From Candidatus Uhrbacteria bacterium (lineage in GTDB: Bacteria > Patescibacteriota > Patescibacteriia > UBA9934), in contig CAIKHN010000009.1 in NCBI GenBank assembly GCA_903827265.1, forward strand, positions 151-64,150: 64,000 bases of DNA, read 5' to 3'. The translations under genes and the position numbers were made by a program. Below, in pieces: positions 1 through 20,920 of this stretch (positions are counted from its first letter, which is position 1; the number at the start of each line of letters is the position of its first letter). The notes beneath the pieces are model-generated. The model did no database searches and was not told where the DNA came from. It saw nothing but the letters and a program-made list of their open reading frames with translations.

Positions 1-9
1 CTATTTGAT

Positions 10-231
10 TTGGGTCTTAATAAAACAGCCTTTTTAATAACAGCAAATGAAAATATTCTACTGATGTTCGATTTTGCAAATCGTTATCTTGGTTTCTGTA
101 TTAAAACACCGAAAGAAAACTATAACGTATTTGATTTATCAAATACGTGGATCGGTTATCTTGTTTCAAACAAAAAAGACGGTTTCAATTATTTTGACGT
201 GAATGGACGCTGGATAGGATTCATTGTCTAA
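10..231 (+). CDS. Hypothetical protein, C-terminal part (ORF continues off the window edge). It has repeated W-I-G motifs (NTWIGYLV / GRWIGFIV) suggestive of WG-type beta repeats. It lies in a segment of about 30% GC.
   Basis: ORF track. Internal repeat seen by eye. AT-rich composition is unlike the rest of the window. Confidence 0.3.
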   Translation: MGLNKTAFLITANENILLMFDFANRYLGFCIKTPKENYNVFDLSNTWIGYLVSNKKDGFNYFDVNGRWIGFIV

Positions 232-233
232 AA

Positions 234-779
234 CTAGGCGAGTTTAATGGTTCTATCAGACAAAGTCATTTGTGAATTGAGATGTCCTAATAGCTCCCGT
301 TTTTCTTCCTTTGTGCCTTCCTTCAGAATATATTTCGCACAGGCATAAACGTCGATGTCCGGCATAATTTCTGCAACTTTTGCTGTCGCGAGATGACCGC
401 CGAGGCTCGAGATCATTTTTGTGAGACGATCAATTTCCTGTTTGATCCGTTCAACCGCCGCGAGTTCGTTGATGTCGACTTTGTCGATGATTTTGTAGAG
501 CTGGTCTAGCAATTCTTCTTCGCGGATATATGGTTGTTTGCATCCTGTCATCCAACGTTTCATGCACCCATAGTATACGTAGCGTTTTGTTGTTCCGTCC
601 TTGAGCCGTTTCACTTTTTGATCGGCACTGATGCCTGAACTACAAGCTCCACATTTGAAGATTTTCGTGAAGCCGAACAGAGCACTGACGACCGCCTTGA
701 GGGCGTCATAGAACGGATATACCACGTGCCGGTACCGAACGAGAACGATGTCGTAACCGCCAATTTCCGTGTTGTCCAT
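234..779 (-). pseudogene. C-terminal fragment of a large serine recombinase: recombinase zinc-beta-ribbon (…KCGACSSG…YVYYGCMKRW…GCKQPY) plus coiled-coil. No N-terminal resolvase catalytic domain is present.
   Basis: The Cys pattern and YYGC motif are typical of the Zn-ribbon recombinase domain. The ORF is only 181 aa. A hairpin and an adjacent gene immediately upstream leave no room for a catalytic domain. Confidence 0.55.
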
Positions 780-904
780 TTGGCCTCCGGCGCGAAATAT
801 AGCGAAATTTCAATCGAAACACAAGATTTGTATGGTCGCTTTTCAATAAAACGCAGTGAAGGCCGCCCGGTGAGGGGCGGCCTTCGTTCGTCTGTCGTTC
901 GTTC

Positions 905-2158
905 TTACGGAATGCTGACCTCGTCGATGCTACCGTCGCAGTCGTTGTCGAGAGCGTCGCAGATCTCGACCGCGCCCTGGTAGACGTTGGGGTTCGCATC
1001 GTTGCAGTCGTCGTCGGTGGGGGCGACGTTCGAGATCCCGAGGAGCACGTAGACTCCGTACTCGCACATGTCTTCCACGACGAGGCTGACGCCTCCGTTC
1101 ATGTCGCCGTCCATGTCGGCATACCAGGACGACGTGCCCACGACGCCCTCAGGATCTTCGTCGTCGACGTAGCCGTCGCAGTCGTTGTCGCTCCAGTCGC
1201 ACACTTCCTCGGCGCCCGGGTGAACCTGGGCCGAGAGCGGGTCTCCCGGAAAGTCGTAGCAATCCGACCCGTCCTCGACGTAGGTCGCGTCGACGCTGAC
1301 CGGTGCTTCGCACGCCGCTACGGCGGGGAAGAAGTATCCGTTCGGGTCGCCGTACCCGTCGCCGTCGTTGTCCGGGTACCACGTGAGGGCGTCCACCGCG
1401 TTGTTGTCCGCGACGCCGTCGCAGTTCTGGTCCATGCCGTCGCAGATCTCGTCCGTGTTGGGGGACACGGTCGGATCGTTGTCGTCGCAGTCGGCGTGAT
1501 CGGCGTTGGAGTACGCCGGACGCTCGTCCGGGCAGGCCATGACGGGGGTGATGTCCTCGGAGGCCGTGGAGCTTCCGTCGCCGTCCACATCCGGGTACCA
1601 GGCCCACATGTCGACGGCTCCCGCTTCCGGGTCGCCGTCGCAGTTCTGGTCGATGCTCACGTTGTGGAGATCGCAGTGCTCCGGGGCACCCGGGTGCACG
1701 TCGACATCGGCGTCGTCACAGTCGTCGGCGTTCGGGACGTAGCCCTTGATGTGCTCACACACCAGCACGGTGAACGCGGGGTCGCCGTAGCCGTCGCCGT
1801 CACCGTCGAAGGACTGGCCGGTGACGGGGTTGTCGTCCACCGTTCCGTTGCAGTCGTTGTCGAGGCCGTCGCAGAGCTCCGGGGCGTCCTGGTAGACGCT
1901 CGGGTCGCTGTCGACGCAGTCCTTGTGGTTCTTCACTTGGCCCTCGGCCAAGACGCAGGTTTCCACGAGGGTGTTGATGTCGCCGTACCCGTCGCCGTCC
2001 ACGTCGCTGTAGGCCTTGAAGGCCGTGCAGGACGCGGTGTCGATCGCCGAGTCGACCGTGTCGTCGATCGCGAGCGCGGTGTCGATGGACTCGGACGAGT
2101 CGGTGGTGGCGGCGGGGGAGGAGCAGGCCAAGAAGGCCAGAATGAGCATGGAGACCAT
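905..2158 (-). CDS. Secreted or lipoprotein-like Cys/Asp-rich repeat protein. It carries multiple DGDGYGD / CDxxDxDxxPGAxExCDGxDNDCDG units resembling the MopE-type putative metal-binding repeat class. Strongly GC-rich relative to the rest of the window.
   Basis: Internal repeats are visible in the translation. N-terminal hydrophobic segment MVSMLILAFLAC. Multiple long spurious ORFs on both strands (1149..1607, 1318..1590, 1800..2216, 1933..2235, and the 5' part of 1220..3175) are typical of a high-GC insert. Confidence 0.6.
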   Translation of the reverse strand: MVSMLILAFLACSSPAATTDSSESIDTALAIDDTVDSAIDTASCTAFKAYSDVDGDGYGDINTLVETCVLAEGQVKNHKDCVDSDPSVYQDAPELCDGLDNDCNGTVDDNPVTGQSFDGDGDGYGDPAFTVLVCEHIKGYVPNADDCDDADVDVHPGAPEHCDLHNVSIDQNCDGDPEAGAVDMWAWYPDVDGDGSSTASEDITPVMACPDERPAYSNADHADCDDNDPTVSPNTDEICDGMDQNCDGVADNNAVDALTWYPDNDGDGYGDPNGYFFPAVAACEAPVSVDATYVEDGSDCYDFPGDPLSAQVHPGAEEVCDWSDNDCDGYVDDEDPEGVVGTSSWYADMDGDMNGGVSLVVEDMCEYGVYVLLGISNVAPTDDDCNDANPNVYQGAVEICDALDNDCDGSIDEVSIP

Positions 2159-2323
2159 GGAGCACCAGGGGCAGGAGGTTTTGGGTACCCAACATTGGGC
2201 GGCAAGACCATACCAAAAAAACGGCGAATTGTCAACCATTATTGGCTAACATTCGCCATTTCTAATGGTAGCCTCATTAACTGTCTCAGTGAGACCGAGT
2301 CTTTAAAAAGACTTACACGATGC

Positions 2324-3175
2324 ATGACTGGCGTATATTTTTCCAACAAACTTATGAACTCTTTTCAGATAACTCCATACAAAACCTTCGGCGATGTTGA
2401 AACCTCGGCGATTCGTTATATTTCTAATGGACATTGGGTTCATGGATTTTTAGCGATGCCGAAAGGAGAAGCGGGACCGTTGCCGTGTATCATTTTTAAT
2501 CGTGGCGGATCCTTTGATTTTGGCGTGATCGACGATGTCACCCTTGAAAAACGTATTTCGCTTATTGCTTCATGGGGCTACGTCGTTATCGCCTCGCAAT
2601 ATTCGGGTAATGGAGGGAGCGAGGGGCAAGATGAGCTTGGAGGAGCTGATGTTGAGGACGTCGTGCGTCTTAAAGAATACATAAAAGATATTCCGCAAGC
2701 AGACGTATCACGCATCGGTATGATCGGCGGATCACGTGGCGGTCAAATGACATACCAGTCTCTTGCTCGTGTTGACTGGTTAAAGGCAGCAGTCAGTATT
2801 GCGGGATTAGCAGATTTGAACCGGCAGATTGTTTTACGACCAGAGATGATCAAAGTATTCGAGCAAGGATTTGACAATACCGCTGAAGGGAGAAAAGAGC
2901 GTAGCGCGATTGCATTTGCCGACCGACTTTGCAAAACAACGCCATTGCTCATGCTCCATGGCACGGCCGACTGGAGAGTAAGCCCTAAGGATTCATTGGA
3001 GTTATCGGTGAGGCTCCTTGAGGCACGTGTGCCACATCGATTGGTGATGTTTGAAGGTGGGGATCACGGACTTGCTGAGCATCGTAAAGAAGAATGGGAG
3101 ATGATCCGTATTTGGTTTAAGCGATTCGTGAAAGACGGAGAAGTGTTGCCTGATTTAGAGCCGCATGGAGTATAG
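2324..3175 (+). CDS. Alpha/beta hydrolase, prolyl-oligopeptidase / dienelactone-hydrolase-like (S9 family)
   Basis: GxSxG nucleophile elbow (IGGSRGG). Downstream Asp and His (…GGDHGL…). The true start is inside track ORF 1220..3175, whose 5' two-thirds is antisense to the GC-rich gene. Confidence 0.65.
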   Translation: MTGVYFSNKLMNSFQITPYKTFGDVETSAIRYISNGHWVHGFLAMPKGEAGPLPCIIFNRGGSFDFGVIDDVTLEKRISLIASWGYVVIASQYSGNGGSEGQDELGGADVEDVVRLKEYIKDIPQADVSRIGMIGGSRGGQMTYQSLARVDWLKAAVSIAGLADLNRQIVLRPEMIKVFEQGFDNTAEGRKERSAIAFADRLCKTTPLLMLHGTADWRVSPKDSLELSVRLLEARVPHRLVMFEGGDHGLAEHRKEEWEMIRIWFKRFVKDGEVLPDLEPHGV

Positions 3176-3219
3176 GTAAAGGGAGTAGATGGCAGGTTAG
3201 TGGGGCAGTCGGGAAAGAT

Positions 3220-3252
3220 ACAACAAAACCGGCCTTGCGCCGGTTTTGTTGT
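3220..3252. terminator. Bidirectional intrinsic terminator between convergent genes
   Basis: Perfect hairpin acaacaaaaccggc-cttgc-gccggttttgttgt with an A-run on one side and a T-run on the other. Confidence 0.6.
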
Positions 3253-3273
3253 GCTCGATATCTGTGATGATTC

Positions 3274-4674
3274 TTACAGCACGTCGTCGATGTCGTTTAC
3301 TGAGTAGTATGCGTCATCACGGTCGTAGTCACGGACGTTATCGATTTCGGTGCCAATCGTGTAGTTGCTGTAAAGGGCATCAGGAACCTTTGCGAGAACG
3401 TTCGTCCAATTGCTGCCGTAGTCGGATTTGAGAAGGGAAAGTGTGGTGTAGTGATGAAGAGTGTGGTCGGCGCTAATGGCGTATACCTTTGAGGAGCTGT
3501 CGAATTTTACGACGACACTTCCTGGACGATACGTCACATTCTTGCCGATGGTGAGTGATGACATGAAGTCTTGGCTGACGTTCACAACGTCATTAAAGTT
3601 GGAATACCAGGTGTAGAAAACACTTTCATTCGGGAACACGTGGCGCTTGCCGTCGTTGCCGTAGTAGTACACGGCCTTACATGTTTGTGATGTGTTTGCA
3701 TACACGCCGCACGCAATCTTGATGAGCGATCCGCGGTTTGCATTGTTGGATGTATGCGATTGGTTGCTCACGGTAACGGTGCGTGATGTGCCGCGTGTCC
3801 AGTTGCCATTCTCATCTTCACAATATGCGTACACCGTGTAGCTGCCGTCGTTGCTGAACGAGTAATTTTTTGTGAATCGGTTTGATGACGACTCAGTCAT
3901 CGATCCGACAGACGATCCGCTGACGTACAGTTTGCAAGTGACTGCATCGAGTGTGCCGTATGGTGTCACGCTGAAGGTAGTTGATTCGTCCTCCGTTGCG
4001 GTTGAAGGCGTTACTGATGGCACGGTGAATGTTCCAGAAGTGTCTGGGTCTTCTTGATTCACAACGCCTACTGTACGCGATGTTCCGGTGGTGTAATTGC
4101 CATCGCCGTCGGCACAGCGTGCGTGCACCGTGTAGCTGCCGTCGTTCGAGAATGTGTAGGACTTGTTAAATGTTGATCCGCTCTTCGTCATCGATCCGAC
4201 GGAGGATCCGCTGACGTACAAGTCGCAAAACGAAGTTGCGGATTCGCCAGAAGGCGTGACGCTGAAGGTTGTTGATGTGTCTTCAATGGCGGATGATGGC
4301 GAAACGGCTGGAACCGTCGGGCCAATGGTGTCGATTTCAAAAGTGACGGATGTTGATGTGCTTGTTGCATTCGTGCCTTGTGCGCGAACAAACAGCGTGT
4401 GCCAGCCGTCAGCAAGTGACCAAGTGGTATATGAGGTGACGTTTCCAAGGTTCAACCAATCGCCGTCATCGACGAGGACTTGATACCACGTTGCGTTTGC
4501 AGGACGTGTCCACGTTGCAGTCGGAGTGGTGTCGTTGGTGTAAATACCGCCAACAAGACTGAGGTTTGTTGGCGCTGCGAGCGTTGCAGCAAGCAATGAT
4601 TGTGGGAGGATCCCAAGGAACAGTGCGGAAAGCGTTGCAATTCCGAGTGCCTTTCGGAGGGAGAGGTTTGTCAT
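3274..4674 (-). CDS. Secreted surface protein with a signal peptide, two tandem ~95-aa Ig-like repeats (…TTFSVTP…YVSGSSVGSMT…NDGSYTV…C.DG.GN.T.GTSRTV…), Thr/Ser-rich linkers and a C-terminal domain
   Basis: Signal-peptide-like N-terminus (LGIATLSALFLGILPQSLLAA). Internal duplication is visible in the translation. Confidence 0.5.
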   Translation of the reverse strand: MTNLSLRKALGIATLSALFLGILPQSLLAATLAAPTNLSLVGGIYTNDTTPTATWTRPANATWYQVLVDDGDWLNLGNVTSYTTWSLADGWHTLFVRAQGTNATSTSTSVTFEIDTIGPTVPAVSPSSAIEDTSTTFSVTPSGESATSFCDLYVSGSSVGSMTKSGSTFNKSYTFSNDGSYTVHARCADGDGNYTTGTSRTVGVVNQEDPDTSGTFTVPSVTPSTATEDESTTFSVTPYGTLDAVTCKLYVSGSSVGSMTESSSNRFTKNYSFSNDGSYTVYAYCEDENGNWTRGTSRTVTVSNQSHTSNNANRGSLIKIACGVYANTSQTCKAVYYYGNDGKRHVFPNESVFYTWYSNFNDVVNVSQDFMSSLTIGKNVTYRPGSVVVKFDSSSKVYAISADHTLHHYTTLSLLKSDYGSNWTNVLAKVPDALYSNYTIGTEIDNVRDYDRDDAYYSVNDIDDVL

Positions 4675-4758
4675 ATACCACCATTGCATGCTTGTTTGGT
4701 GTGGTTGTCAATGCGAAAAAATGTGGATTGATTTTCCGCAAGCTGATACGATTGTTTT

Positions 4759-5115
4759 ATGCCAAAACCTATTGAACACACACCACAGGAACGGACGCAG
4801 ATGATCATCGCTGCCGTTTTGGAATGCTTGAATGCATTTTCCGATTTTCGGGAAGAATATTCGGCGCAGAATGCGTCTGAGGTTGTTGCGATCCAAAAAT
4901 CGCTCGAACACATTGCGATGACCGTACTTTCTGACGCGACTATCGACGACAAGCCGCAGGTAATCGCGAAACGCATGCTGTCAGACTTGAGTCATCGCGG
5001 TGGAATTCGTCAGGGATTCTTTGATCCGATGGAATCAGAAGATCGCGGTAATTTAGTCCGTGACGTTGCGTTTGTTATTTACCGTGTTTTGCACAGCGGC
5101 AGTGTTTTCCAATGA
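4759..5115 (+). CDS. Hypothetical protein
   Basis: ORF only. The 3' end overlaps the convergent SET-domain gene by about 40 nt. Confidence 0.3.
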   Translation: MPKPIEHTPQERTQMIIAAVLECLNAFSDFREEYSAQNASEVVAIQKSLEHIAMTVLSDATIDDKPQVIAKRMLSDLSHRGGIRQGFFDPMESEDRGNLVRDVAFVIYRVLHSGSVFQ

Positions 5116-5497
5116 AGTAGTTGAAGTAGTCTTTGCCGTAGTTGTACGAAAGTTCTTCGCCGGCGTTGATTGCGCGTTTTGAAAAGACGAGAACTTTTCG
5201 CCCTTTTACTTCTACTTCGCAATTTGGACGGCATGAATGGTTAATGTATCGCGCGATGTTTTTACGCGTGGTTCCGTTGATGGTTTTGCCGTGGCCAAGC
5301 TCGAAAAGATACTTGCCGCCGATGCGGTTCGCTTCATCGTCGGAAACGATATCGCCCCAATACTCAATGATGAACCGACGCTTAGGAATGGCGACATTGG
5401 TAAAAATGCCCAAACCAGCGGCGCTTTTGCGCGGTACAACGTCGAATGCGGTTTTGCGTGGCGTGTAGGCCATAGAAGAAAAATAACCGCGAAGCAT
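5075..5497 (-). CDS. SET-domain protein (putative protein-lysine N-methyltransferase)
   Basis: Canonical SET motifs NHSCRPNC and ELSYNYG, plus a post-SET Cys cluster CRCAKHGK. Confidence 0.7.
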   Translation of the reverse strand: MLRGYFSSMAYTPRKTAFDVVPRKSAAGLGIFTNVAIPKRRFIIEYWGDIVSDDEANRIGGKYLFELGHGKTINGTTRKNIARYINHSCRPNCEVEVKGRKVLVFSKRAINAGEELSYNYGKDYFNYFIGKHCRCAKHGK

Positions 5498-5569
5498 AGC
5501 AGAAATTTGGAAAAAAGTACAGAGCGTTATGACCGGTCTTTGAAATAAAGGATACGAAAAGAATCAGAT

Positions 5570-5986
5570 ATGAAATATTGGCTTCTCAAAACCGAACCGA
5601 GTACATACTCCTGGGACGATCTTGTTCGCGATGGCGCCACGAGCTGGACAGGAGTTCGTAACTTCCAAGCGCGAAATAATTTGCGAGCGATGCAAGTTGG
5701 TGACGCGTTGTTCGTGTATCATTCAGTGAATGAACGATCGATCCGCGGTATTGCAACGGTTACGCGGTCTGCGTATTCAGATCCAACGGCCACAGATGGA
5801 GATTGGGTCGCGGTTGATGTTTTAGTAGATCATGCCGCAGACGTTCCGCTATCACTTGATGACATCAAAAGAATTCCGTCACTGAAGAACATGGTGCTTG
5901 TGAAGAACTCTCGACTTTCTGTGCAACCGGTTACCGACGCCGAATGGGATGAATGCTTTCAAAAAATGTATCCAAAATTCGGATAA
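5570..5986 (+). CDS. EVE-domain (PUA-like) protein
   Basis: N-terminal MKYWLLKTEP…YSWDDL…W.GVRN.QARN.LR.M..GD..FVYHS is typical of EVE/DUF55. Confidence 0.7.
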   Translation: MKYWLLKTEPSTYSWDDLVRDGATSWTGVRNFQARNNLRAMQVGDALFVYHSVNERSIRGIATVTRSAYSDPTATDGDWVAVDVLVDHAADVPLSLDDIKRIPSLKNMVLVKNSRLSVQPVTDAEWDECFQKMYPKFG

Positions 5987-5988
5987 TA

Positions 5989-6663
5989 CTATTCAACGTA
6001 TTCGTTCGTTTCTTCAGGCGGCAAAGTAAGATCGACATTGAACGATGGCGCGGTCCATGAATGCTCGCCAGTGATGCTCATGTCGCGAGCTGGCGCTCGA
6101 GTTGCTGCTTCAATCGCGCCCCAAACTTCGTTGCGATTGCGCCCAGAGGTAATGGAATGTTCAATGCGACGAACACCAGGATATTTTTCTTCGAGTGTAC
6201 GATGCAGTTTTGCGGCGTCCGATGCTGAAAGTTTATCCATTTTGTTTGTGATAATCACGAACGGAATTCCGTTACTCTGCAACCATGCGGCCATGTCAGC
6301 ATCAAGTTCTGTTGGAGGAATGCGTGCATCGATAATGAGAAGTACAAGACGAAGCTGTGGGGTTTGCAAAAGATATTCGTGAATCATTTCCGCAAACATG
6401 ACTCGCTTTTCCTTTGACGTTTGTGCGTAGCCGTAGCCTGGAAGATCAACAAGAAAAAAACGATGTTCAATATCGTAAAGGTTGATGGTTTGCGTGCGTC
6501 CAGGATCGGCACTGACTCGCGCAAGTTTCTTTTGACCGGTGAGATGATTAATCATCGACGATTTTCCGACGTTGGAACGCCCAACCATAGCGATGTGCGG
6601 TTTTGCATCGATAGGGAGATCAGAGAGCGACGTTGTCGCAGTAAAGAAAGACGCGGAAATCAT
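5989..6663 (-). CDS. engB: Ribosome-biogenesis GTPase EngB/YihA
   Basis: G1 motif GRSNVGKSS, DLPGYG, NKMD. The start is trimmed to an internal Met; the track ORF extends to 6846. Confidence 0.8.
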   Translation of the reverse strand: MISASFFTATTSLSDLPIDAKPHIAMVGRSNVGKSSMINHLTGQKKLARVSADPGRTQTINLYDIEHRFFLVDLPGYGYAQTSKEKRVMFAEMIHEYLLQTPQLRLVLLIIDARIPPTELDADMAAWLQSNGIPFVIITNKMDKLSASDAAKLHRTLEEKYPGVRRIEHSITSGRNRNEVWGAIEAATRAPARDMSITGEHSWTAPSFNVDLTLPPEETNEYVE

Positions 6664-6781
6664 ATGAGGAGTGAGTGTAGCACGTCTGAGGCAGACTGCA
6701 TATGATTGTGCTATTACCCATTGTGGCGCATGGTGAAGGAAAGATCGTCTACGCGGAATCTTGTGCGGTAACTTTTTCCGT

Positions 6782-6931
6782 ATGTTGTGGACTATCGCGG
6801 TCGTGCTCCTTGTTCTTTGGTTCCTCGGACTGGTGACGTCGTACACTATGGGCGGGTTTATTCACATTCTGTTCGTTCTTGCGATCATTGTCGTGTTGAT
6901 TCGTGTCATTCGAGGAGAGAAAGTGATCTGA
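6782..6931 (+). CDS. lmo0937-family small membrane protein (49 aa): MLWTIAVVLLVLWFLGLVTSYTMGGFIHILFVLAIIVVLIRVIRGEKVI. It is absent from the ORF track because it is under 60 aa.
   Basis: Manual translation. The sequence pattern matches the widespread lmo0937 small-protein family. Confidence 0.55.
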   Translation: MLWTIAVVLLVLWFLGLVTSYTMGGFIHILFVLAIIVVLIRVIRGEKVI

Positions 6932-6972
6932 TGTGAAGAAATGGTACGATGTGGTCATGATCATTTTGGATT

Positions 6973-7452
6973 ATGACCAATCGTCCATGGCTTGAGTTCG
7001 GAATTTTTATCGCCATCGCGGAAAGCGCTGGCCTTCTTGGATCGGTGTTCACTTTCTCTGCAATCCCAACGTGGTACGCGACACTTGTGCGGCCGGCGAT
7101 CGCTCCGCCGAGTTGGGTGTTTGGACCGGTGTGGACCACGCTTTTCGCAATGATGGGTATTGCTGCGTGTCTGGTGTGGCAGCAGCGAAAACGTCGGAAA
7201 GATGTTCGGCGTGCACTCTTTCTTTTTGGTCTTCAACTTGTGCTGAACGTGTTGTGGTCAGTGCTGTTCTTTGGAATGCAAAATCTTGGTCTAGCGTTTG
7301 GAGAAATTTTTCTTCTTTGGATTGCGATCGCTACAACCATTGTCGCATTCGGGAGAATTTCCCGATCAGCCGCGTGGCTTATGGTGCCGTATCTGCTTTG
7401 GGTGAGTTTTGCGACGGTACTGAACTACGCGTTTTGGATTGCGAATGCATAG
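6973..7452 (+). CDS. tspO: TspO/MBR family tryptophan-rich sensory protein
   Basis: Motifs P.WVFGPVWT.LY.MMGIA..LVW and multiple Trp-rich TM segments. Confidence 0.8.
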   Translation: MTNRPWLEFGIFIAIAESAGLLGSVFTFSAIPTWYATLVRPAIAPPSWVFGPVWTTLFAMMGIAACLVWQQRKRRKDVRRALFLFGLQLVLNVLWSVLFFGMQNLGLAFGEIFLLWIAIATTIVAFGRISRSAAWLMVPYLLWVSFATVLNYAFWIANA

Positions 7453-7455
7453 CGT

Positions 7456-7977
7456 ATGCCAAGAACGCGGAGTACAACCATTGTCGTGAATGACTCTTTT
7501 CAAAGAGGATATCGGTACGTGCTCACAGAACCGTCTGGCAGAAATTTCGATTCACGATTTTCGCCGGAACTTACACCAAAACAGATGCTCGCGCTTGGCG
7601 TATTCGACGGAAAGTACATGACGGATTGTCGGAAAGAGTTTCCAAAAAGCTGGTTTGCGCGCGCAAAGCTTTCGCCAAAACGACCAGATCCATCAATAAA
7701 TTATTTTGGGTGTCATGCAAGTCAATCGCTGCGAACATGGCAGCGCAACGGATGGATTCGTGCGGCGTTTGATCCTCGCGGTTGGTTTCAATGGTACTGC
7801 AGGTATTACATGGGACGACGTTTGCCTGGTGAGGACGATCGGCAGATTCGCCGTTGGCGAGCAATCGCACGACATGTCGGTGCTGTTCGCAAGCATTGCG
7901 CAAAAGGCGATGCAACTTGTCGACCGCGTCAACGGCAGGCGCTCCTGCACTGGGCGTATGATAGTCGTAATATATAG
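7456..7977 (+). CDS. Conserved hypothetical protein, basic and Trp/Arg-rich (…SINYFG…DPRGWFQWY.RYY.GRR…RQRQALLHWAYD)
   Basis: ORF with low-complexity-free conserved-looking motifs. I could not place the family. Confidence 0.4.
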   Translation: MPRTRSTTIVVNDSFQRGYRYVLTEPSGRNFDSRFSPELTPKQMLALGVFDGKYMTDCRKEFPKSWFARAKLSPKRPDPSINYFGCHASQSLRTWQRNGWIRAAFDPRGWFQWYCRYYMGRRLPGEDDRQIRRWRAIARHVGAVRKHCAKGDATCRPRQRQALLHWAYDSRNI

Positions 7978-7984
7978 TGTGTTT

Positions 7985-8389
7985 ATGCCTACATCTCTTT
8001 CATTGTTCGCGATTGCGTTCTCGACGTTTCTCGCACTCGATCTCACCTGGATTGGATTCGTTGCGCGTGGATTTTACAAAAGTCAGATTGGGTACCTCAT
8101 GACGTCGAACGTAAACTGGATTGCGGCGATTGCGTTTTACGTTCTTTTTATCGTTGGGCTCTTGGTATTCGTTATTGGTCCGGCTTTTCAATCACACTCC
8201 TGGATTCAGGCATTGTTGTACGGCGCGTTCTTCGGTTTGGTGACGTACGCAACGTATGATTTAACCAATCTTGCAACCACAAAAGATTGGCCATTGCTTC
8301 TCACTGTTGTTGATCTGACGTGGGGCACCGTGCTCGCTGCATCAGTTTCGGCACTTACAGTACTGATTGCGAATGCATTAAAGGTGTAA
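7985..8389 (+). CDS. DUF2177-family membrane protein
   Basis: Four predicted TM helices. The sequence pattern resembles DUF2177. The start is trimmed from track ORF 7706..8389. Confidence 0.45.
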   Translation: MPTSLSLFAIAFSTFLALDLTWIGFVARGFYKSQIGYLMTSNVNWIAAIAFYVLFIVGLLVFVIGPAFQSHSWIQALLYGAFFGLVTYATYDLTNLATTKDWPLLLTVVDLTWGTVLAASVSALTVLIANALKV

Positions 8390-8390
8390 T

Positions 8391-9152
8391 ATGTTTGGAT
8401 TTCTTGCGTTTCTCGTGTGGGCGTACATGACGGTGTGGTTTGGTGTCGCAGCACTTCGAAAACGAAATGATCTCGCTGACGTCGCGTGGGGAATTGGATT
8501 CGTTGTCCTTGCTTGGGCGTCGTGGATCGTTGGTACAGGAAGTATTCTTGCCGCCATGGTGAATACGCTTGTGACCGTGTGGGGCACACGACTCGCATGG
8601 CATATTTACCGGCGTCATCGAGGGCGGCCTGAGGATTTTCGTTATGCAGCATGGCGCGTTCAGTGGGGAGCGTGGGTTCTTCCACGGTCATATGCGCAAA
8701 TTTTTCTTTTACAAGGCGCGCTCATGTATGGCGTAGCGCTTCCTGTACTTGCGGTGAACCTCTTTCCATTGACGACGTCACCATTCGTTACTGTGGTGGG
8801 ATTTGCCGTGTGGTGTATCGGCTTTGCGTTTGAGTCTATTGGTGATGCACAGCTCGCGCGCTTCATTGCCGACCCGGCGCAAAAAGGAAAGCTGTTGATG
8901 TCTGGATTGTGGAAGTACACGCGTCATCCGAATTATTTTGGTGAAGTAACACAGTGGTGGGGAATATGGTGCGTGGTTGTTGCAAGTACAGGTGCCTGGT
9001 GGACGGTTATTGGCCCATTGATAATTACGGGGTTGATTTTGTGGGTCTCTGGAATTCCAATGCTCGAGGCGAAAATGAAACTTCATCCAGACTTTGCGGC
9101 GTACGCGAAAAGAACAAACCGATTTTTCCCGATGATTCCACGTCGGTCGTAA
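8391..9152 (+). CDS. DUF1295 / steroid-5-alpha-reductase-like (ICMT/PEMT superfamily) membrane protein
   Basis: Conserved RHPNYFGE motif. Polytopic. Confidence 0.65.
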   Translation: MFGFLAFLVWAYMTVWFGVAALRKRNDLADVAWGIGFVVLAWASWIVGTGSILAAMVNTLVTVWGTRLAWHIYRRHRGRPEDFRYAAWRVQWGAWVLPRSYAQIFLLQGALMYGVALPVLAVNLFPLTTSPFVTVVGFAVWCIGFAFESIGDAQLARFIADPAQKGKLLMSGLWKYTRHPNYFGEVTQWWGIWCVVVASTGAWWTVIGPLIITGLILWVSGIPMLEAKMKLHPDFAAYAKRTNRFFPMIPRRS

Positions 9153-9192
9153 CGCCGTTCGAAGGTGATCGTCATGCTATGATCGTGTACGT

Positions 9193-10254
9193 ATGATTCC
9201 GGGATCGCGACAGGCGCTGCAAACATACAAACGTGTTCGAGCGTTTGCACATCAGTACGAACGTTGGTTTATGCCAGCGATGCTTGTTGGTGGAACGGGT
9301 TTCGATGTGTGGCAATTTCGCGTTCTTGATTTGCGGGAAAAATTTATTGTCATGTGCGTGTACGTTGTAACGGTTATGGGTTCCATGGCTCTTACTGCGT
9401 ACAGACGTTCTGATGATCTTTCACCGTTGCGGTACTTAAAACTCGCTGCGCCGTTTGCGCAGCAATTTGCGATGGGAGGTTTGTTGAGCACTGCGCTGCT
9501 GTTTTATTGGTTCAGCGGAACGCTGTCGGTAACGTGGCCACTTGTCGTACTTGTTGCGCTCCTCATGATTTCAAACGAGACACTCCGGCACATTGTTCTT
9601 CGTCCATTGGTGCAAATTGGTATGTTGTATTTTGCGCTGTTTTCATTATTTGCAATTTGGTTTGCGCATCTTTTCGCATCGTTGAGCTGGCCAGTGTTTC
9701 TTGCAGGGGGCTTTGCAAGCATGGTAGTGATGTCGCTCTTGTTGGCGCTTCTCGTGAACCTTGGAGATTTGTATACCGACCGTATTCGGATGTGGTTGAC
9801 GATTGCTGGCGTGTTTGTGTTCATGAACGTGTGTTACTTCCTCAATATTATTCCGCCAATTCCGCTAGCATTGCGCGACGCAACAATGGCGTACAGCGTG
9901 ACTAACGATTACGTTCTTGTGACACCGGAGGAGTCATGGATCGATCGACTCATTCCTGGAGAGACTATTCTTGTGACGCCGGGCGATCCGTTGTACGCAT
10001 ATACAGCGGTGTATGCGCCAGAAGGGCTCTCAACAACAATTGTGCATCAGTGGCAACGCTACGACGACGAGACGCATCGGTGGGAAACTGAACATACGCT
10101 TTCATTCGCGATTGCCGGCGGACGACCTGACGGGTATCGCGGGTACTCCATGGTGTCGTCGCTCGCGGCAGGAAAGTGGCGGGTAAGTGTCGAAACGACA
10201 ACAGGCCAGGTGCTCGGTCGGATAACCTTCACCGTCGTCACCGGCGCAGAGTGA
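9193..10254 (+). CDS. Membrane protein with a C-terminal extracytoplasmic beta domain (DUF2914-like)
   Basis: N-terminal multi-TM region followed by a soluble C-terminal domain. Confidence 0.4.
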   Translation: MIPGSRQALQTYKRVRAFAHQYERWFMPAMLVGGTGFDVWQFRVLDLREKFIVMCVYVVTVMGSMALTAYRRSDDLSPLRYLKLAAPFAQQFAMGGLLSTALLFYWFSGTLSVTWPLVVLVALLMISNETLRHIVLRPLVQIGMLYFALFSLFAIWFAHLFASLSWPVFLAGGFASMVVMSLLLALLVNLGDLYTDRIRMWLTIAGVFVFMNVCYFLNIIPPIPLALRDATMAYSVTNDYVLVTPEESWIDRLIPGETILVTPGDPLYAYTAVYAPEGLSTTIVHQWQRYDDETHRWETEHTLSFAIAGGRPDGYRGYSMVSSLAAGKWRVSVETTTGQVLGRITFTVVTGAE

Positions 10255-10340
10255 TCGAGCGAATCAACGGGTGGCACCGAGGGACGCGAGCGCCAGTGAC
10301 GACGGTACATGTTTCGCAACGAGCAGCACGGATGCACAGC

Positions 10341-10362
10341 CACGTCGTTCGCGAACGACGTG
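10341..10362. repeat. Perfect 22-bp palindrome cacgtcgttcgcgaacgacgtg. A second copy lies at 38483..38506 inside the 38-kb repeat element.
   Basis: Exact sequence match seen by eye. Confidence 0.7.
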
Positions 10363-10465
10363 GCACGGCCGTAGTCGAGTGAAACGAGGCGTCACGGCGT
10401 AGCGTCCTTGCGCACAGTGAAGAAACATGTACCCGAGTCACCAAGCGAGCGATTAGGAATTGACT

Positions 10466-10493
10466 GGATCCCCGCCTTCGCGGGGATGACTGA
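10466..10493 (-). repeat. Short hairpin repeat family R1 (tcagtcatccccgcg-N4-gcggggatcc), reverse orientation. Other copies are at 20488..20515 and 27857..27884.
   Basis: Three near-identical copies, each an 8-bp-stem hairpin, all intergenic. Confidence 0.7.
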
Positions 10494-10564
10494 GGGAACG
10501 AGGATGACCATGGGAGGTTCGGCTTGCGCAAAACAAATATTTCTGCTAACATTCGCAAAATCCT

Positions 10565-10969
10565 ATGTACAACAAATACCAAAGTCAGCGTTCTGGTGGT
10601 TCAAATAGCGGAAAGCCCAACAATCGTGGCACATGGAACCGTGCTGGTGCAGGCCGTCCAGCTCCTCGCGAGTTGCACGACGCGACATGCAGCGAGTGCC
10701 GCAAGCCATGCCAAGTTCCTTTTTTCCCAAGTGAAGGTCGTCCGGTAAAATGTCGTGATTGTTTCCGTACCGACGGACCAAACTTCGACGATCGCGATGA
10801 CCGTCGTCCATCATTCGACCGCAAGCCATCGTACGCCGATCGTTCTGAACGTCCGGCCTATGCACCACGTGAAGAGCGTTCCTCTGGAAGTGGCGATTCC
10901 GTCCGCCTTGCAGCAATTGAGCGCAAACTTGATCAGATCCTCGAGCTTCTCGACGCAGACGAAATGTAA
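10565..10969 (+). CDS. Zinc-ribbon protein (CSEC-x17-CRDC) with a disordered basic/acidic C-terminal tail
   Basis: CxxC…CxxC spacing. The gene is followed by a strong terminator. Confidence 0.45.
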   Translation: MYNKYQSQRSGGSNSGKPNNRGTWNRAGAGRPAPRELHDATCSECRKPCQVPFFPSEGRPVKCRDCFRTDGPNFDDRDDRRPSFDRKPSYADRSERPAYAPREERSSGSGDSVRLAAIERKLDQILELLDADEM

Positions 10970-10980
10970 ATAAAAGAACC

Positions 10981-11017
10981 GCGGCCGCCTCGCAATGAGG
11001 CGGCCGCGCGTTTTTTT
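10981..11017. terminator. Intrinsic terminator (gcggccgcctc-gcaatg-aggcggccgc plus T7), usable bidirectionally
   Basis: GC-rich perfect hairpin with a T-run. Confidence 0.65.
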
Positions 11018-11786
11018 ACTGCCACTGAACCAGGAATCCGGCGGCGTTGTGCGATTGGGCAATCACGTAGCCATTGTTTGTGCTTCGTTCTCCTCCTTTC
11101 ACGAGCCGAGGCTTTGCCCTCGGGTACGCAGCGCGAATGAAGAACATGTGCTCGCGACTCACCGCAGTGAGGTCGATCACGAATCGGAGAAGTGTTTGTG
11201 GCGTACCGTCGGGCGGCGGTCGAACCTCGCTCGGCAGCGCTCGATCGAGAAGGAACCGTCGATCGTGCCGGTGGATCCGATACGTTTCGTCGCCTTCTGA
11301 AGTGCTGATGACCGCCCAGCGCGGAACAGGCCTCGGACTCTGAATGTGGACTCGATATTTCCGGCTGAGACGCTCCACCGCATTCATGAACGCAATGTTG
11401 CGTTCGCGGTCAGAGCTCGGCAGATGCGGCAGATCTGGAAAGCATGTCGATGCGTATCGTTCAGCGGTTCCGCCAGGCTTCAGTCCGGGATGATGGAGTC
11501 GGTGCACCTCTGACATGGAGAGCGGGACGAGCTCGATGTCATCGCCGATTGCGTAATCGCGAGCGAACGTCTCTCGTTCAAGCGGTCCGCGGATGTCCCA
11601 GACGTTTCCGTCGGGTGCCAGCACACCGGCGTGGTTTCCGTTGCGAAGCCGTACCATTGGCCAACCGGTGATCCGGTGGAGGCCGGCGGCAAATGCGTAG
11701 CAGTCGCCGTGAAGGTATCCGTCTTCGATGCTCCGGCGGAGCGTATCTCGATCGTATGCATCGGGTGTGAGAACCGTGGTCGTCAT
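11016..11786 (-). CDS. Hypothetical protein, GC-rich (about 60% GC)
   Basis: The ORF start is trimmed to the MTTTVLTP Met. Composition is distinct from the neighbours. No motif recognised. Confidence 0.35.
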   Translation of the reverse strand: MTTTVLTPDAYDRDTLRRSIEDGYLHGDCYAFAAGLHRITGWPMVRLRNGNHAGVLAPDGNVWDIRGPLERETFARDYAIGDDIELVPLSMSEVHRLHHPGLKPGGTAERYASTCFPDLPHLPSSDRERNIAFMNAVERLSRKYRVHIQSPRPVPRWAVISTSEGDETYRIHRHDRRFLLDRALPSEVRPPPDGTPQTLLRFVIDLTAVSREHMFFIRAAYPRAKPRLVKGGERSTNNGYVIAQSHNAAGFLVQWQ

Positions 11787-11871
11787 GATGATCACCGGGG
11801 TAGCGCGGTTGTGAAAACGGACGGTGAAGCGTAGCATAATGGTATACTCAAGGCAACATAAACCCTTATCT

Positions 11872-12798
11872 ATGAAGGCTCTTCCACGCTCGACAGCGAA
11901 AGATGTGTTTGCACATTTGTTCGCCATTGTGACGCTTTACGTGTCGGTCGTGTCATTCATTGTTCTTGGATTCCAGTACATCGACGTTTCGTTTCCTGAT
12001 GCGTTGAATTTCTATTACACCGGCGCCTTGGATGCGATCCGTGGAGGCATGGCGAGCCTTATCGTGATGTGGCCAGCGTTCATTGGTATTTCGTGGTTCA
12101 TGCACAAGGACGCAAAAGCAGAACCAGAGAAACGCGAAATCGCTATTCGAAAATGGTTGCTGTACCTCACATTGTTTGTGACGGCAATCACGATTGTTGT
12201 TGATCTCATCACGTTAGTGAACTACTTCTTGAACGGAGAAATCACGACACGATTCATTTTGAAAGTTCTAGTGATGCTTGCAACGGCGGCTGCGGTGTTT
12301 GCGTATTACCTTTGGGACTTGCGGACAGAGTCGATTGCGAAATCGACGACACCAAAAAAGACGGCAATCGCAGCATCGGTCGTGGTCATCGCAACGATCG
12401 TTCTCGGGTTCCTTCTTGTTGGCTCACCAGCACAGCAGCGCAAAGTTCGATTCGACGATCAACGTGTGTCTGAGCTGACATCAATCCAGTATGAAATCGC
12501 GAATTACTACAGTACGAAGCACGTGCTTCCAATCGGATTAGCCGATCTCACAAACGCGCTGAGTGGATTTACAACACCAAAAGATCCTTCAACTGGTGCG
12601 CAGTTCGAATACAGCACGAAGAGCACATTGTCGTTCGAGTTGTGTGCGACGTTTGAGGCAGAATCTGCTGGTGGAGATGTTGTTCAAGCTGTTCCAGTGT
12701 ACGGCGGTTACGGATCACCTGATCAAAACTGGACGCACGGCGTTGGCCGAACATGTTTTACCCGCACGATTGACCCTACAATGTATCCAACAAAGTAG
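11872..12798 (+). CDS. DUF5671-like membrane protein (N-terminal TM bundle plus C-terminal domain)
   Basis: TM topology and family-like pattern. The start is trimmed to MKALPRS. Confidence 0.45.
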   Translation: MKALPRSTAKDVFAHLFAIVTLYVSVVSFIVLGFQYIDVSFPDALNFYYTGALDAIRGGMASLIVMWPAFIGISWFMHKDAKAEPEKREIAIRKWLLYLTLFVTAITIVVDLITLVNYFLNGEITTRFILKVLVMLATAAAVFAYYLWDLRTESIAKSTTPKKTAIAASVVVIATIVLGFLLVGSPAQQRKVRFDDQRVSELTSIQYEIANYYSTKHVLPIGLADLTNALSGFTTPKDPSTGAQFEYSTKSTLSFELCATFEAESAGGDVVQAVPVYGGYGSPDQNWTHGVGRTCFTRTIDPTMYPTK

Positions 12799-20487: not shown

Positions 20488-20515
20488 TCAGTCATCCCCG
20501 CGCAGGCGGGGATCC
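20488..20515 (+). repeat. Hairpin repeat R1 copy (tcagtcatccccgcgcaggcggggatcc), followed by a second hairpin (gaacgggacgagc-gaa-gctcgtcccgtt) serving as the ABC-F terminator
   Basis: Sequence identity with the copies at 10466 and 27857. Confidence 0.7.
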
Positions 20516-20587
20516 ATCAGAAAGCGTGAACGGGACGAGCGAAGCTCGTCCCGTTTCGTTAATCAGCGCGTCGCTGATCCGTTGTAC

Positions 20588-20920
20588 CTATCCGCAGATC
20601 GACCACTCGCGAGCATACGTTCCCGTGGTGCTGAGCAGCCGTTGCAGTCGTTCGGCGGCGCGTTGCCGGCGGGCGACTGATTCGCGGTTGTGAGGGTAGT
20701 CGAATTCCAGATCCTGCTTGCCGCGTGCGTAGAGAAGGAGCGTCGCGATCGACACCTTCTTTCCCTTCACACGAGGGTACGCGATTTGGAAGTCCAGCCA
20801 CGGAAGATGTGCGGTGATTTCCGCAGTCGCCGAGGCGGTCGATTCATGCCCCAGACTCTTGAGAAGTTTTCGGTTCTGTTCTCGACGGGCGGTGGAGTGA
20901 AGGTGATGACGACGCGCCAT
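20588..20920 (-). CDS. Hypothetical ORF in a GC-rich, poorly coding-looking segment (possible gene remnant)
   Basis: Overlapping ORFs on both strands (20483..20680, 20559..20801, 20690..20971) show no clear single reading frame. Confidence 0.2.
   Translation of the reverse strand: MARRHHLHSTARREQNRKLLKSLGHESTASATAEITAHLPWLDFQIAYPRVKGKKVSIATLLLYARGKQDLEFDYPHNRESVARRQRAAERLQRLLSTTGTYAREWSICG

Follow-up and report, generated by a model that had tools for sequence, protein, structure and literature searches.

The left end of the 64,000-nucleotide stretch analysed here (the window; positions 151 to 64,150 of contig CAIKHN010000009.1, assembly GCA_903827265.1, Candidatus Uhrbacteria bacterium) raises the question of whether three neighbouring genes of very different base composition arrived there together or separately. 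The end of a gene low in guanine plus cytosine (GC), a truncated recombinase gene and a high-GC gene for a putative cysteine- and aspartate-rich lipoprotein follow one another within 2.2 kb, and an earlier, sequence-only reading took them as the edge of an integrated island with foreign genes. All three compositions were located where that reading had placed them. Of its interpretation, a mosaic zone linked to a tRNA gene stood, while the high-GC gene proved not to be cargo of the decayed recombinase. Window positions 1-2256 are the right-hand border of a mosaic plasticity zone of at least 10 kb downstream of a tRNA-Asn(gtt) gene, and we hold, with a probability of about 0.6, that three independent layers meet at this border: a dead recombinase remnant, a low-GC gene pair and an old cassette with foreign codon usage.

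The high-GC gene lies on the minus strand at 905..2158, in a frame open up to 2239, and encodes a 417-amino-acid, Cys/Asp-rich putative lipoprotein with five PF11617 (MopE-type) repeats. Its GC content had been described as far above a background of roughly 50%, and it is 0.658 (0.644, 0.421 and 0.909 at the first, second and third codon positions). The value at third positions (GC3) compares with a mean of 0.530 (standard deviation 0.073) for 78 open reading frames (ORFs) of the window and its left extension, the latter read from the public contigs L001 and L002. The gene is thus about five standard deviations out, and the shift greatly exceeds the spread seen among these ORFs. It is the only plausible ORF in the 64 kb with a GC3 of at least 0.7, the rest of the window being homogeneous (GC 0.46-0.58 per kb; GC3 0.43-0.61). 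Each 200-nt window of the high-GC ORF has a GC of 0.62-0.70 and every 30-codon block a GC3 of 0.83-1.0, the signal peptide included, and individual codons differ accordingly from host usage (GCC, 0.59 versus 0.10; CCC, 0.31 versus 0.03). Recoding the same protein with host codons, as used in 17 typical window genes, gave 52.4% GC, which excludes the amino-acid make-up of the protein as an explanation. Conversion between the internal repeats (ectopic conversion) is also unlikely, given the uniformly high 30-codon blocks and a similar composition in a non-repetitive neighbouring gene for a 366-amino-acid protein (see below). The anomaly is one of codon usage, uniform along the gene and stopping at its ends. 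This codon usage runs against that of the host and cannot be told apart from the usage of MopE genes in high-GC genomes, an indication that the gene originated outside the mutational regime of this genome; codon-usage fingerprinting for a single donor type was not discriminating.

A search of 5.8 billion proteins returned only four other full-length, collinear relatives (P0001, P0003, P0041 and P0214, at 82, 57, 51 and 50% identity, 412-463 amino acids), all remaining relatives being at most 45% identical and mostly 600-800 amino acids long. The expectation that the closest relatives would come from high-GC taxa was not borne out, since none outside the Uhrbacteria-like clade is closer than 45% identity and high-GC taxa yielded no closer relative in this collection. 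The contigs that carry the orthologues are Uhrbacteria-like and have a neighbourhood in common with the window. On L086 a Big_13 orthologue (56% amino-acid identity) lies directly upstream of the gene and SET downstream; on L087, L170 and L171 the genes for Big_13, SET (65%), DUF2914 (49%) and ABC-F (69%) lie on one side and DUF2200 (70%) on the other. No recombinase was found beside the gene on any of these four contigs. The orthologues have a GC3 of 0.82-0.95 against 0.47-0.72 for their neighbours.

Divergence tells a similar story. Between L087 and L170 the proportion of synonymous differences (pS) is 0.19 in the MopE gene and mostly 0.19-0.32 in the flanks (0.04 in a small ORF, 0.51 in an M3 peptidase gene), and GC-neutral C<->G third-position differences amount to 5%, compared with about 4% in four of the five flanking genes for which they were counted and 0.3% in the fifth, Pif1. 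The gene has therefore co-diverged with its flanks. Its nonsynonymous differences (pN) are about ten times those of the flanks, with a pN/pS of 0.72. Between the window gene and its orthologues on L086, L087 and L170, synonymous sites have reached 91-96% of saturation for their codon usage (flanking genes, 95-115%). The high-GC gene is an old resident inherited with its surroundings, its positional orthologues occurring in four or more further assemblies that represent three to four lineages, and the proposal that it is a recent arrival or cargo of the decayed recombinase element is not supported.

The gene sits in a self-contained high-GC cassette (850..2256, minus strand) made up of a palindrome and promoter, a 5' untranslated region, the lipoprotein gene and a terminator. 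Its limits were set by alignment with contig L085: window 2256-850 and L085 584-1986 are 86.3% identical across 1409 nt, with unrelated sequence on either side. A sigma-70-type promoter at 2207..2235 (minus strand; TTGACA, 17 nt, TATGGT, with TG ahead of the second hexamer and 10/12 matches) is kept in L085 and L086. Because this conserved promoter occupies 2235-2207, the real start is probably at 2158 or 2149, and not at 2239 as first proposed. An inverted repeat, GCGAAT-N21-ATTCGC (2224..2256), spans the -35 hexamer and lies at the exact upstream end of the cassette homology; its pairing is preserved in L085 with changes on both arms (AGCGAA...TTCGCT), and it could be an operator or, in an ancestral context, the terminator of an upstream gene. 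At the other end, an intrinsic-terminator-like hairpin of the lipoprotein gene (858..885, minus strand; 11 pairs, 9 of them G-C, followed by a T-rich tail) is 96% conserved in L085 and 82% in L086.

The high GC content of the gene had been said to generate four or five long shadow ORFs, and five were found, of 90-651 amino acids. The longest (1220..3175, plus strand) fuses the antisense of the high-GC gene in frame to an S9 peptidase gene, whose real start is at about 2324 and whose S9 domain covers residues 75-269 of a 283-amino-acid protein. The annotations of L001 and L002 list this 651-amino-acid product instead of the lipoprotein. Since the public calls chose antisense ORFs, the true lipoprotein product is missing from the protein collection, in which no record of it from this genome was found. 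A 391-amino-acid shadow ORF (L001 16848-18023, minus strand) is likewise publicly called opposite the secreted 366-amino-acid protein.

Next to the cassette, 125 nt from the high-GC gene, lies a 181-amino-acid ORF on the minus strand (234..779). It had been described as a truncated C-terminus of a large serine recombinase, and this description was upheld. A zinc beta-ribbon and the C-terminal region of such an enzyme are present by sequence match in residues 35-178 (nt 677-246), the only significant Pfam match being PF13408 (Zn_ribbon_recom, E-value 3.6e-7), and positions 297-380 of the 542 in the NCBIfam CcrB model are matched. Homology begins at residue 35; the preceding residues 1-34 (nt 779-678) and nt 780-849 had no match in any locus compared, so that the whole junction from the recombinase breakpoint to the cassette end (678..849) is without homologue there, and in a blastn search of 660-905 against all these loci the terminator part alone matched. 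The PF00239 resolvase domain was not found in the ORF with Pfam, nor was the PF07508 recombinase domain, which is also missing in alignment with relatives of 240-300 amino acids.

The closest homologue with known context, on contig L088, is the second of two overlapping ORFs of a split recombinase, the first of which carries PF00239. It is 74% identical in amino acids (144 aligned) and 73.6% in nucleotides, and the pair lies in a mobile island together with methyltransferase, helicase and AAA_5 proteins and a second, full-length large serine recombinase. No intact recombinase, and no stretch resembling a resolvase or recombinase domain, was found in the window, in L001 (including 9.8 kb leftward of the window) or in L004, and a tblastn search of the same sequences with the L088 resolvase ORF returned nothing. 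All 90 detectable relatives of the remnant (P0121-P0210) are 100-317 amino acids long and none has a resolvase domain; the close homologues (62-90% identity) begin at differing internal points, and most relatives are from Patescibacteria, with one from a DPANN archaeon. The family either decays very often or is commonly split. The ORF is a truncated and presumably inactive remnant. From its matches, a large serine recombinase gene of the family seen in the methylase- and helicase-carrying island of the related contig would have lost its catalytic and recombinase domains, and the surviving zinc ribbon and C-terminal part would have become fused to 34 unrelated codons. The lost N-terminus would be expected to the right, in the place now taken by the high-GC gene, and not to the left of the window. 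Scans of viral collections with the remnant, the lipoprotein and the low-GC protein described next gave no relatives.

The third layer begins at the window edge. The claim that bases 1..233 are about 30% GC was confirmed (GC 0.307 and GC3 0.27 over 1-231; GC 0.29 over 1-200). Positions 1..231 (plus strand) are the 3' end, the last 76 codons and stop, of a gene for a 252-amino-acid protein that starts to the left of the window and is complete in L002 (10549-11307; GC 0.37), where it follows a HEPN ORF (GC 0.42) with a 7-nt overlap. The description of its product as a WG-repeat protein tail holds in so far as three xxW/YxGxxV units are present; the label is a loose one, and the tail has a sub-threshold Pfam match to the 4-fold beta-flower family (E-value 0.0036). 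A 24-nt tandem repeat (L002 10811-10911, just left of window base 1) encodes NGSINPNI/NGSINPSI units of the same protein. The two public assemblies are 148 bp apart at this repeat, where L001 has a run of N, and its copy number may therefore be variable.

Leftward from the low-GC gene the order is the HEPN gene, a spacer of about 200 nt, tRNA-Asn(gtt), DUF1761, Gmad2, DUF2200 and two further high-GC genes. The tRNA gene (L001 12152-12226, minus strand; 1.4 kb left of window base 1) is present in both L001 and L002, and its 3' end points toward the HEPN gene, the low-GC gene and the recombinase remnant. The three genes immediately beyond it are host-like. The recommended check of composition to the left thus revealed additional high-GC genes beyond the tRNA (GC3 0.76 and 0.92). 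The nearer one (L001 15882-16640, plus strand; about 5.1 kb left of the window) encodes a cytosolic-looking protein of 252 amino acids with a GC3 of 0.76, and the farther one (L001 16956-18056, plus strand; reaching to about 7.3 kb) the secreted protein of 366 amino acids, with a GC3 of about 0.92-0.95, an AT-rich, promoter-like region of its own and a terminator hairpin rich in GC. Both were without a Pfam match and without a homologue among the loci compared.

Across this zone GC ranges from 0.23 to 0.70 and gene content varies among relatives, with different cargo between tRNA and remnant in L001 and L089 and different genes between the MopE gene and DUF2200 in L001 and L170. On contig L089 another remnant from this recombinase family, 110 amino acids long and truncated differently, lies 3.2 kb from the same tRNA-Asn in the same relative orientation, without the high-GC gene. 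L089 further contains two low-GC ORFs (GC 0.35-0.40) in a 1.3-kb insert bounded by 74-nt direct repeats (9116-9189 and 10418-10491; 98.6% identical). These repeats consist of the last few nucleotides of the tRNA-Asn and the sequence downstream of it, and beyond the 74 nt a degenerate tRNA 3' end follows the distal copy. Integration at the tRNA next to the window has clearly left its footprint here. The remnant and the repeat-flanked insert together mark this side of the tRNA-Asn as an insertion hotspot in the lineage. The slot between remnant and tRNA holds the HEPN and low-GC pair in this genome and other genes in the relative; the pair is therefore probably accessory or defence-type cargo. 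The present adjacency of cassette and remnant would then be the outcome of rearrangement or deletion in the hotspot and not a relationship of cargo and integrase.

The lipoprotein itself matches PF11617 ('putative metal-binding motif') at 151.3 bits against a cut-off of 27, in five stretches, and has 5752 relatives at an E-value of at most 0.001. Its N-terminus, MVSMLILAFLAC, resembles a short lipoprotein signal, and its Cys is shared by each of the five orthologues; with TTG taken as the start, L087 and L170 would show a canonical MRSFLFPLVLLLTAC. Across 14 relatives 66 columns are invariant, mostly Cys, Asp and Gly, and the repeats contain DxDxDG-like and CDGxDNDCDG motifs. Such motifs recall calcium-binding repeat modules, and by this analogy the product probably binds Ca2+ or another metal and is disulfide-stabilised at the cell surface, where it may mediate attachment or surface interaction. 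A sequence search of solved structures, MopE entries included, gave no match. The pN/pS of the gene is 0.33-0.72, compared with 0.02-0.15 in flanks with measurable divergence, and such fast protein evolution is as expected for an exposed surface protein.

High GC is not a general trait of these proteins. In 50 MopE-family loci outside Uhrbacteria, gene GC minus flank GC is between -0.07 and +0.08 and GC3 falls to 0.20-0.43 in low-GC hosts; an intrinsic family trait was ruled out on this basis, as these loci track host GC with GC3 down to 0.20. The sole outlier of the survey, L101, is another Uhrbacteria-like contig. It shares a GNVR gene (76% amino-acid identity) with the NCBI Uhrbacteria contig L172, and downstream of that gene both carry a second MopE locus (L101 1421-10382; L172 5764-12412). 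The GC3 of the GNVR gene is 0.53 in L101 and 0.80 in L172, and that of the tandem MopE-family lipoprotein genes beside it 0.88-0.91 and 0.90-0.94, respectively. When the Uhrbacteria-like loci were scanned for ORFs with a GC3 of at least 0.8, all but one (L172 1877-2626; 249 amino acids, GC3 0.80) were predicted lipoproteins. Several of them, and a 222-amino-acid gene product of L086 (GC3 0.77), have a very short signal without K/R. The pattern of persistent GC3 thus covers two loci and seven Uhrbacteria-like assemblies besides this genome, and no description of such a gene-bounded pattern was found in the literature. Tentatively, Uhrbacteria may keep a class of surface-lipoprotein genes at a GC3 of about 0.9 whatever the GC3 of the genome (0.47-0.80), through saturated turnover and at conserved positions.

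Direct exchange of alleles was also observed. A segment comprising a small ORF, the MopE gene and an 82-amino-acid ORF is 0-0.5% divergent between L170 (9677-11618) and L171 (3152-5093), in flanks that are 4-12% divergent, and such identity amid divergent flanks means that alleles are exchanged between lineages, here in a recent recombination tract. The two MopE genes are identical and were of no ingroup use for polarising substitutions. On the branches of the window and L085, changes from strong to weak base pairs (S>W) outnumber the reverse (W>S) by 16 to 2. With saturated outgroups and a parsimony bias that alone predicts about 5:1, this ratio is no more skewed than expected and favours neither side.

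Four other accounts of the high-GC gene have to be set against these observations. That its composition is an artefact, through normal GC variation, a protein rich in Asp, Gly, Cys, Ala and Pro or a chimeric metagenome assembly, is hardly credible. The protein is indeed 19% Asp and rich in Gly, Ala and Pro, and MopE genes in low-GC hosts are on average about 0.02 to 0.08 above their flanks in GC; yet GC3 lies five standard deviations from the ORF mean, recoding with host codons gives 52% GC, orthologues in independent assemblies show the same pattern, and the same junctions occur in ENA scaffolds of two samples, a Logan contig and the window (at least four assemblies). By composition and junction numbers this account is already refuted. 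A more natural suggestion, made by the sequence-only reading, is that the gene is recent cargo of an element whose recombinase has since decayed, so that 1-2239 would be one island edge. Gene and remnant are close neighbours, the codon usage is foreign and a tRNA gene is nearby. This suggestion is nevertheless quite improbable and already largely refuted, because the orthologues occupy the same neighbourhood without a recombinase on L086, L087, L170 and L171, the L089 remnant occurs without the gene, the homology of window and L085 stops at the terminator, short of the remnant, and synonymous sites are saturated among the orthologues.

The remaining two accounts concern the force that holds GC3 high in an old gene, and in-situ maintenance and recurrent import have similar weight. 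Vertical inheritance with GC3 held near 0.9 by a force on the gene class, either GC-biased gene conversion through frequent exchange of surface-gene alleles or selection on synonymous sites, would accommodate the positional orthology and co-divergence with flanks, the saturation with GC3 unchanged, the L170/L171 tract and the second locus of L172 and L101, where MopE GC3 is about 0.9 despite 0.80 and 0.53 in GNVR; synonymous differences between strong and weak bases also number 17, against 23-43 expected from flank rates. It is doubtful all the same, in that the small ORFs of the same recombination tract are not GC-enriched (GC3 0.59-0.68), the GC shift ends at start codon and terminator, and ordinary translational selection is unlikely for codons that oppose host usage. 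The effect on GC3 would also be far above those reported for biased gene conversion in bacteria. Recurrent replacement of lipoprotein alleles from a high-GC reservoir, whether higher-GC Uhrbacteria or a partner or host organism, through transformation and recombination with the conserved promoter, terminator or repeat motifs as anchors, is doubtful to the same degree. It would explain a codon usage indistinguishable from that of MopE genes in high-GC bacteria, the near-restriction of GC3 of at least 0.8 to predicted lipoproteins, several with the same short signal, and the occurrence of the closest alleles (window and L085, 86% nucleotide identity) in unrelated flanks with homology ending exactly at palindrome and terminator. 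Lineage-to-lineage exchange was seen directly in L170/L171, and published surveys show that Patescibacteria receive most of their transferred genes from one another (PMC12455944). Against it, no donor sequence closer than 45% identity was found, the five orthologues form their own short clade (412-463 amino acids) and are collinear over their full length, L087 and L170 have co-diverged with their flanks, and even in the higher-GC L172 the MopE genes remain 0.1-0.3 above their flanks in GC3.

The preferred reading, a zone border of three independent layers with an old foreign-codon cassette, has its own difficulties. Saturated orthologues that still have a GC3 of 0.82-0.95 exclude a simple course of single acquisition followed by decay, so that some maintaining process, or import more than once, has to be assumed. 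The search for a donor found none: outside Uhrbacteria the nearest homologues are only 35-45% identical and come from hosts with a GC of 0.35-0.76. The two closest alleles, those of the window and L085, differ in their immediate flanks, and some mobility of the cassette is therefore possible. Attachment-site (att)-like direct repeats bounding an element, which the sequence-only reading had proposed to look for, were not convincingly present in this genome. The search took in L002 7000-12104 for repeats, L001 for partial copies of the tRNA and window 1-6000 for fuzzy fragments of its 3' end; the best candidate in L001 was a 12-nt T-arm-like match (E-value 0.15), and no att repeat or tRNA fragment in these sequences bounds any element. 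A defence-type function of the HEPN gene and its low-GC neighbour is unsupported by PADLOC and NCBIfam, in which neither gave a match. As to the surface lipoprotein, the signal is unusually short, with Cys at position 12 and no K/R, the AlphaFold model is of moderate confidence (predicted local distance difference test score 68), and a fold search with it gave no PDB match.

The public counterparts of this locus agree closely with the window. L001, a 450-kb ENA scaffold, matches window 1-10779 with the reverse complement of its positions 1-10779 (99.94% identity), a Logan contig is identical across 1874 nt, and 13 public contigs carry the exact 181-amino-acid product of ORF 234-779. The six differences between window and ENA scaffold in 10.8 kb all fall within 22 nt (7761-7782), in the DUF2177 gene region, at spacings that are multiples of three; the cluster may reflect strain polymorphism at third codon positions or a short tract of recombination. 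ENA assembly ERZ18647255 has the window's left end on scaffold_1 (450 kb) and its right end on scaffold_15 (93 kb), so the window is from a more contiguous assembly of the same population. The seryl-tRNA synthetase at its right end is 91-95% identical to counterparts in metagenome-assembled genomes of Patescibacteria and Candidatus Uhrbacteria, which places the source organism, judged by sequence, as a Patescibacteria (Candidate Phyla Radiation) bacterium close to Candidatus Uhrbacteria. Elsewhere in the window, patches with a GC of 0.60-0.63 and without a convincing ORF were noted at 10100-10500, 11100-11800 and 20500-20900. A 303-amino-acid ORF at 11016-11927 (minus strand) had no Pfam match, and Rfam gave nothing at the gathering threshold in the whole window, nor at E-value thresholds in 1-2400 and 10200-12000.

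Several consequences may follow. GC3-rich genes in these genomes of about 50% GC are systematically mis-called, with antisense shadow ORFs annotated in their stead, and true surface proteins are in this way absent from protein databases and from homology-based surveys. Foreign codon usage that does not decay, if confirmed on complete genomes, would be a natural test case for mutation bias, biased gene conversion or recurrent transfer. If a whole class of lipoprotein genes is indeed kept at high GC3, either a compositional force acts on one gene class or genes flow continuously from a high-GC partner; in the latter case the flow could reveal the hosts of these episymbionts. Were the source a partner organism, the lipoprotein gene could mark the host association of uncultivated Uhrbacteria.

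Patescibacteria are documented to carry genomic islands, prophages and genes transferred one by one, and the majority of these transfers take place inside the phylum (PMC12455944). A degraded serine recombinase gene with variable cargo beside it and a tRNA gene nearby is an ordinary island remnant. Like tRNA-linked genomic islands and integrative elements with decayed integrases, among them the islands reported in Patescibacteria (PMC12455944), the zone described here lies on the 3' side of a tRNA, is mosaic in composition, holds cargo that varies among relatives and contains a degraded site-specific recombinase. The relative L089 furthermore has a direct-repeat-flanked insertion at the same tRNA. 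Unlike such islands, this genome has neither flanking repeats nor an intact recombinase in the sequences searched, its recombinase is of the serine type, and its most conspicuous 'foreign' gene is conserved in relatives and not strain-specific. Targeting of tRNA genes is typical of tyrosine integrases rather than serine ones.

With large serine recombinases of the SCCmec CcrB type, the remnant shares the zinc beta-ribbon and C-terminal segment that align to PF13408 and CcrB 297-380; it differs from them in lacking PF00239 and PF07508, in its first 34 unrelated codons and in having only short relatives. The lipoprotein resembles PF11617/MopE-related proteins of Myxococcota and other bacteria in its five repeats, its invariant Cys and Asp columns and its predicted secretion or lipoprotein signal. 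Unlike most PF11617 relatives (600-800 amino acids), it belongs to a short, Uhrbacteria-specific orthologue clade, and unlike the MopE family in other phyla it has a composition decoupled from that of its host genome.

The one odd feature of the locus is this persistent, gene-bounded GC3 in positional orthologues, which would not have been predicted. Of the signs of recent transfer, foreign codon usage is present, and absence from relatives or a closer donor homologue was not borne out. In the amelioration model of Lawrence and Ochman, acquired atypical genes reportedly drift toward the composition of their host. The lipoprotein gene resembles the genes of that model in having gene-bounded foreign codon usage in an otherwise homogeneous genome, and departs from it in that orthologues with saturated synonymous sites all keep a GC3 of 0.82-0.95 in hosts whose own GC3 ranges from 0.47 to 0.8.

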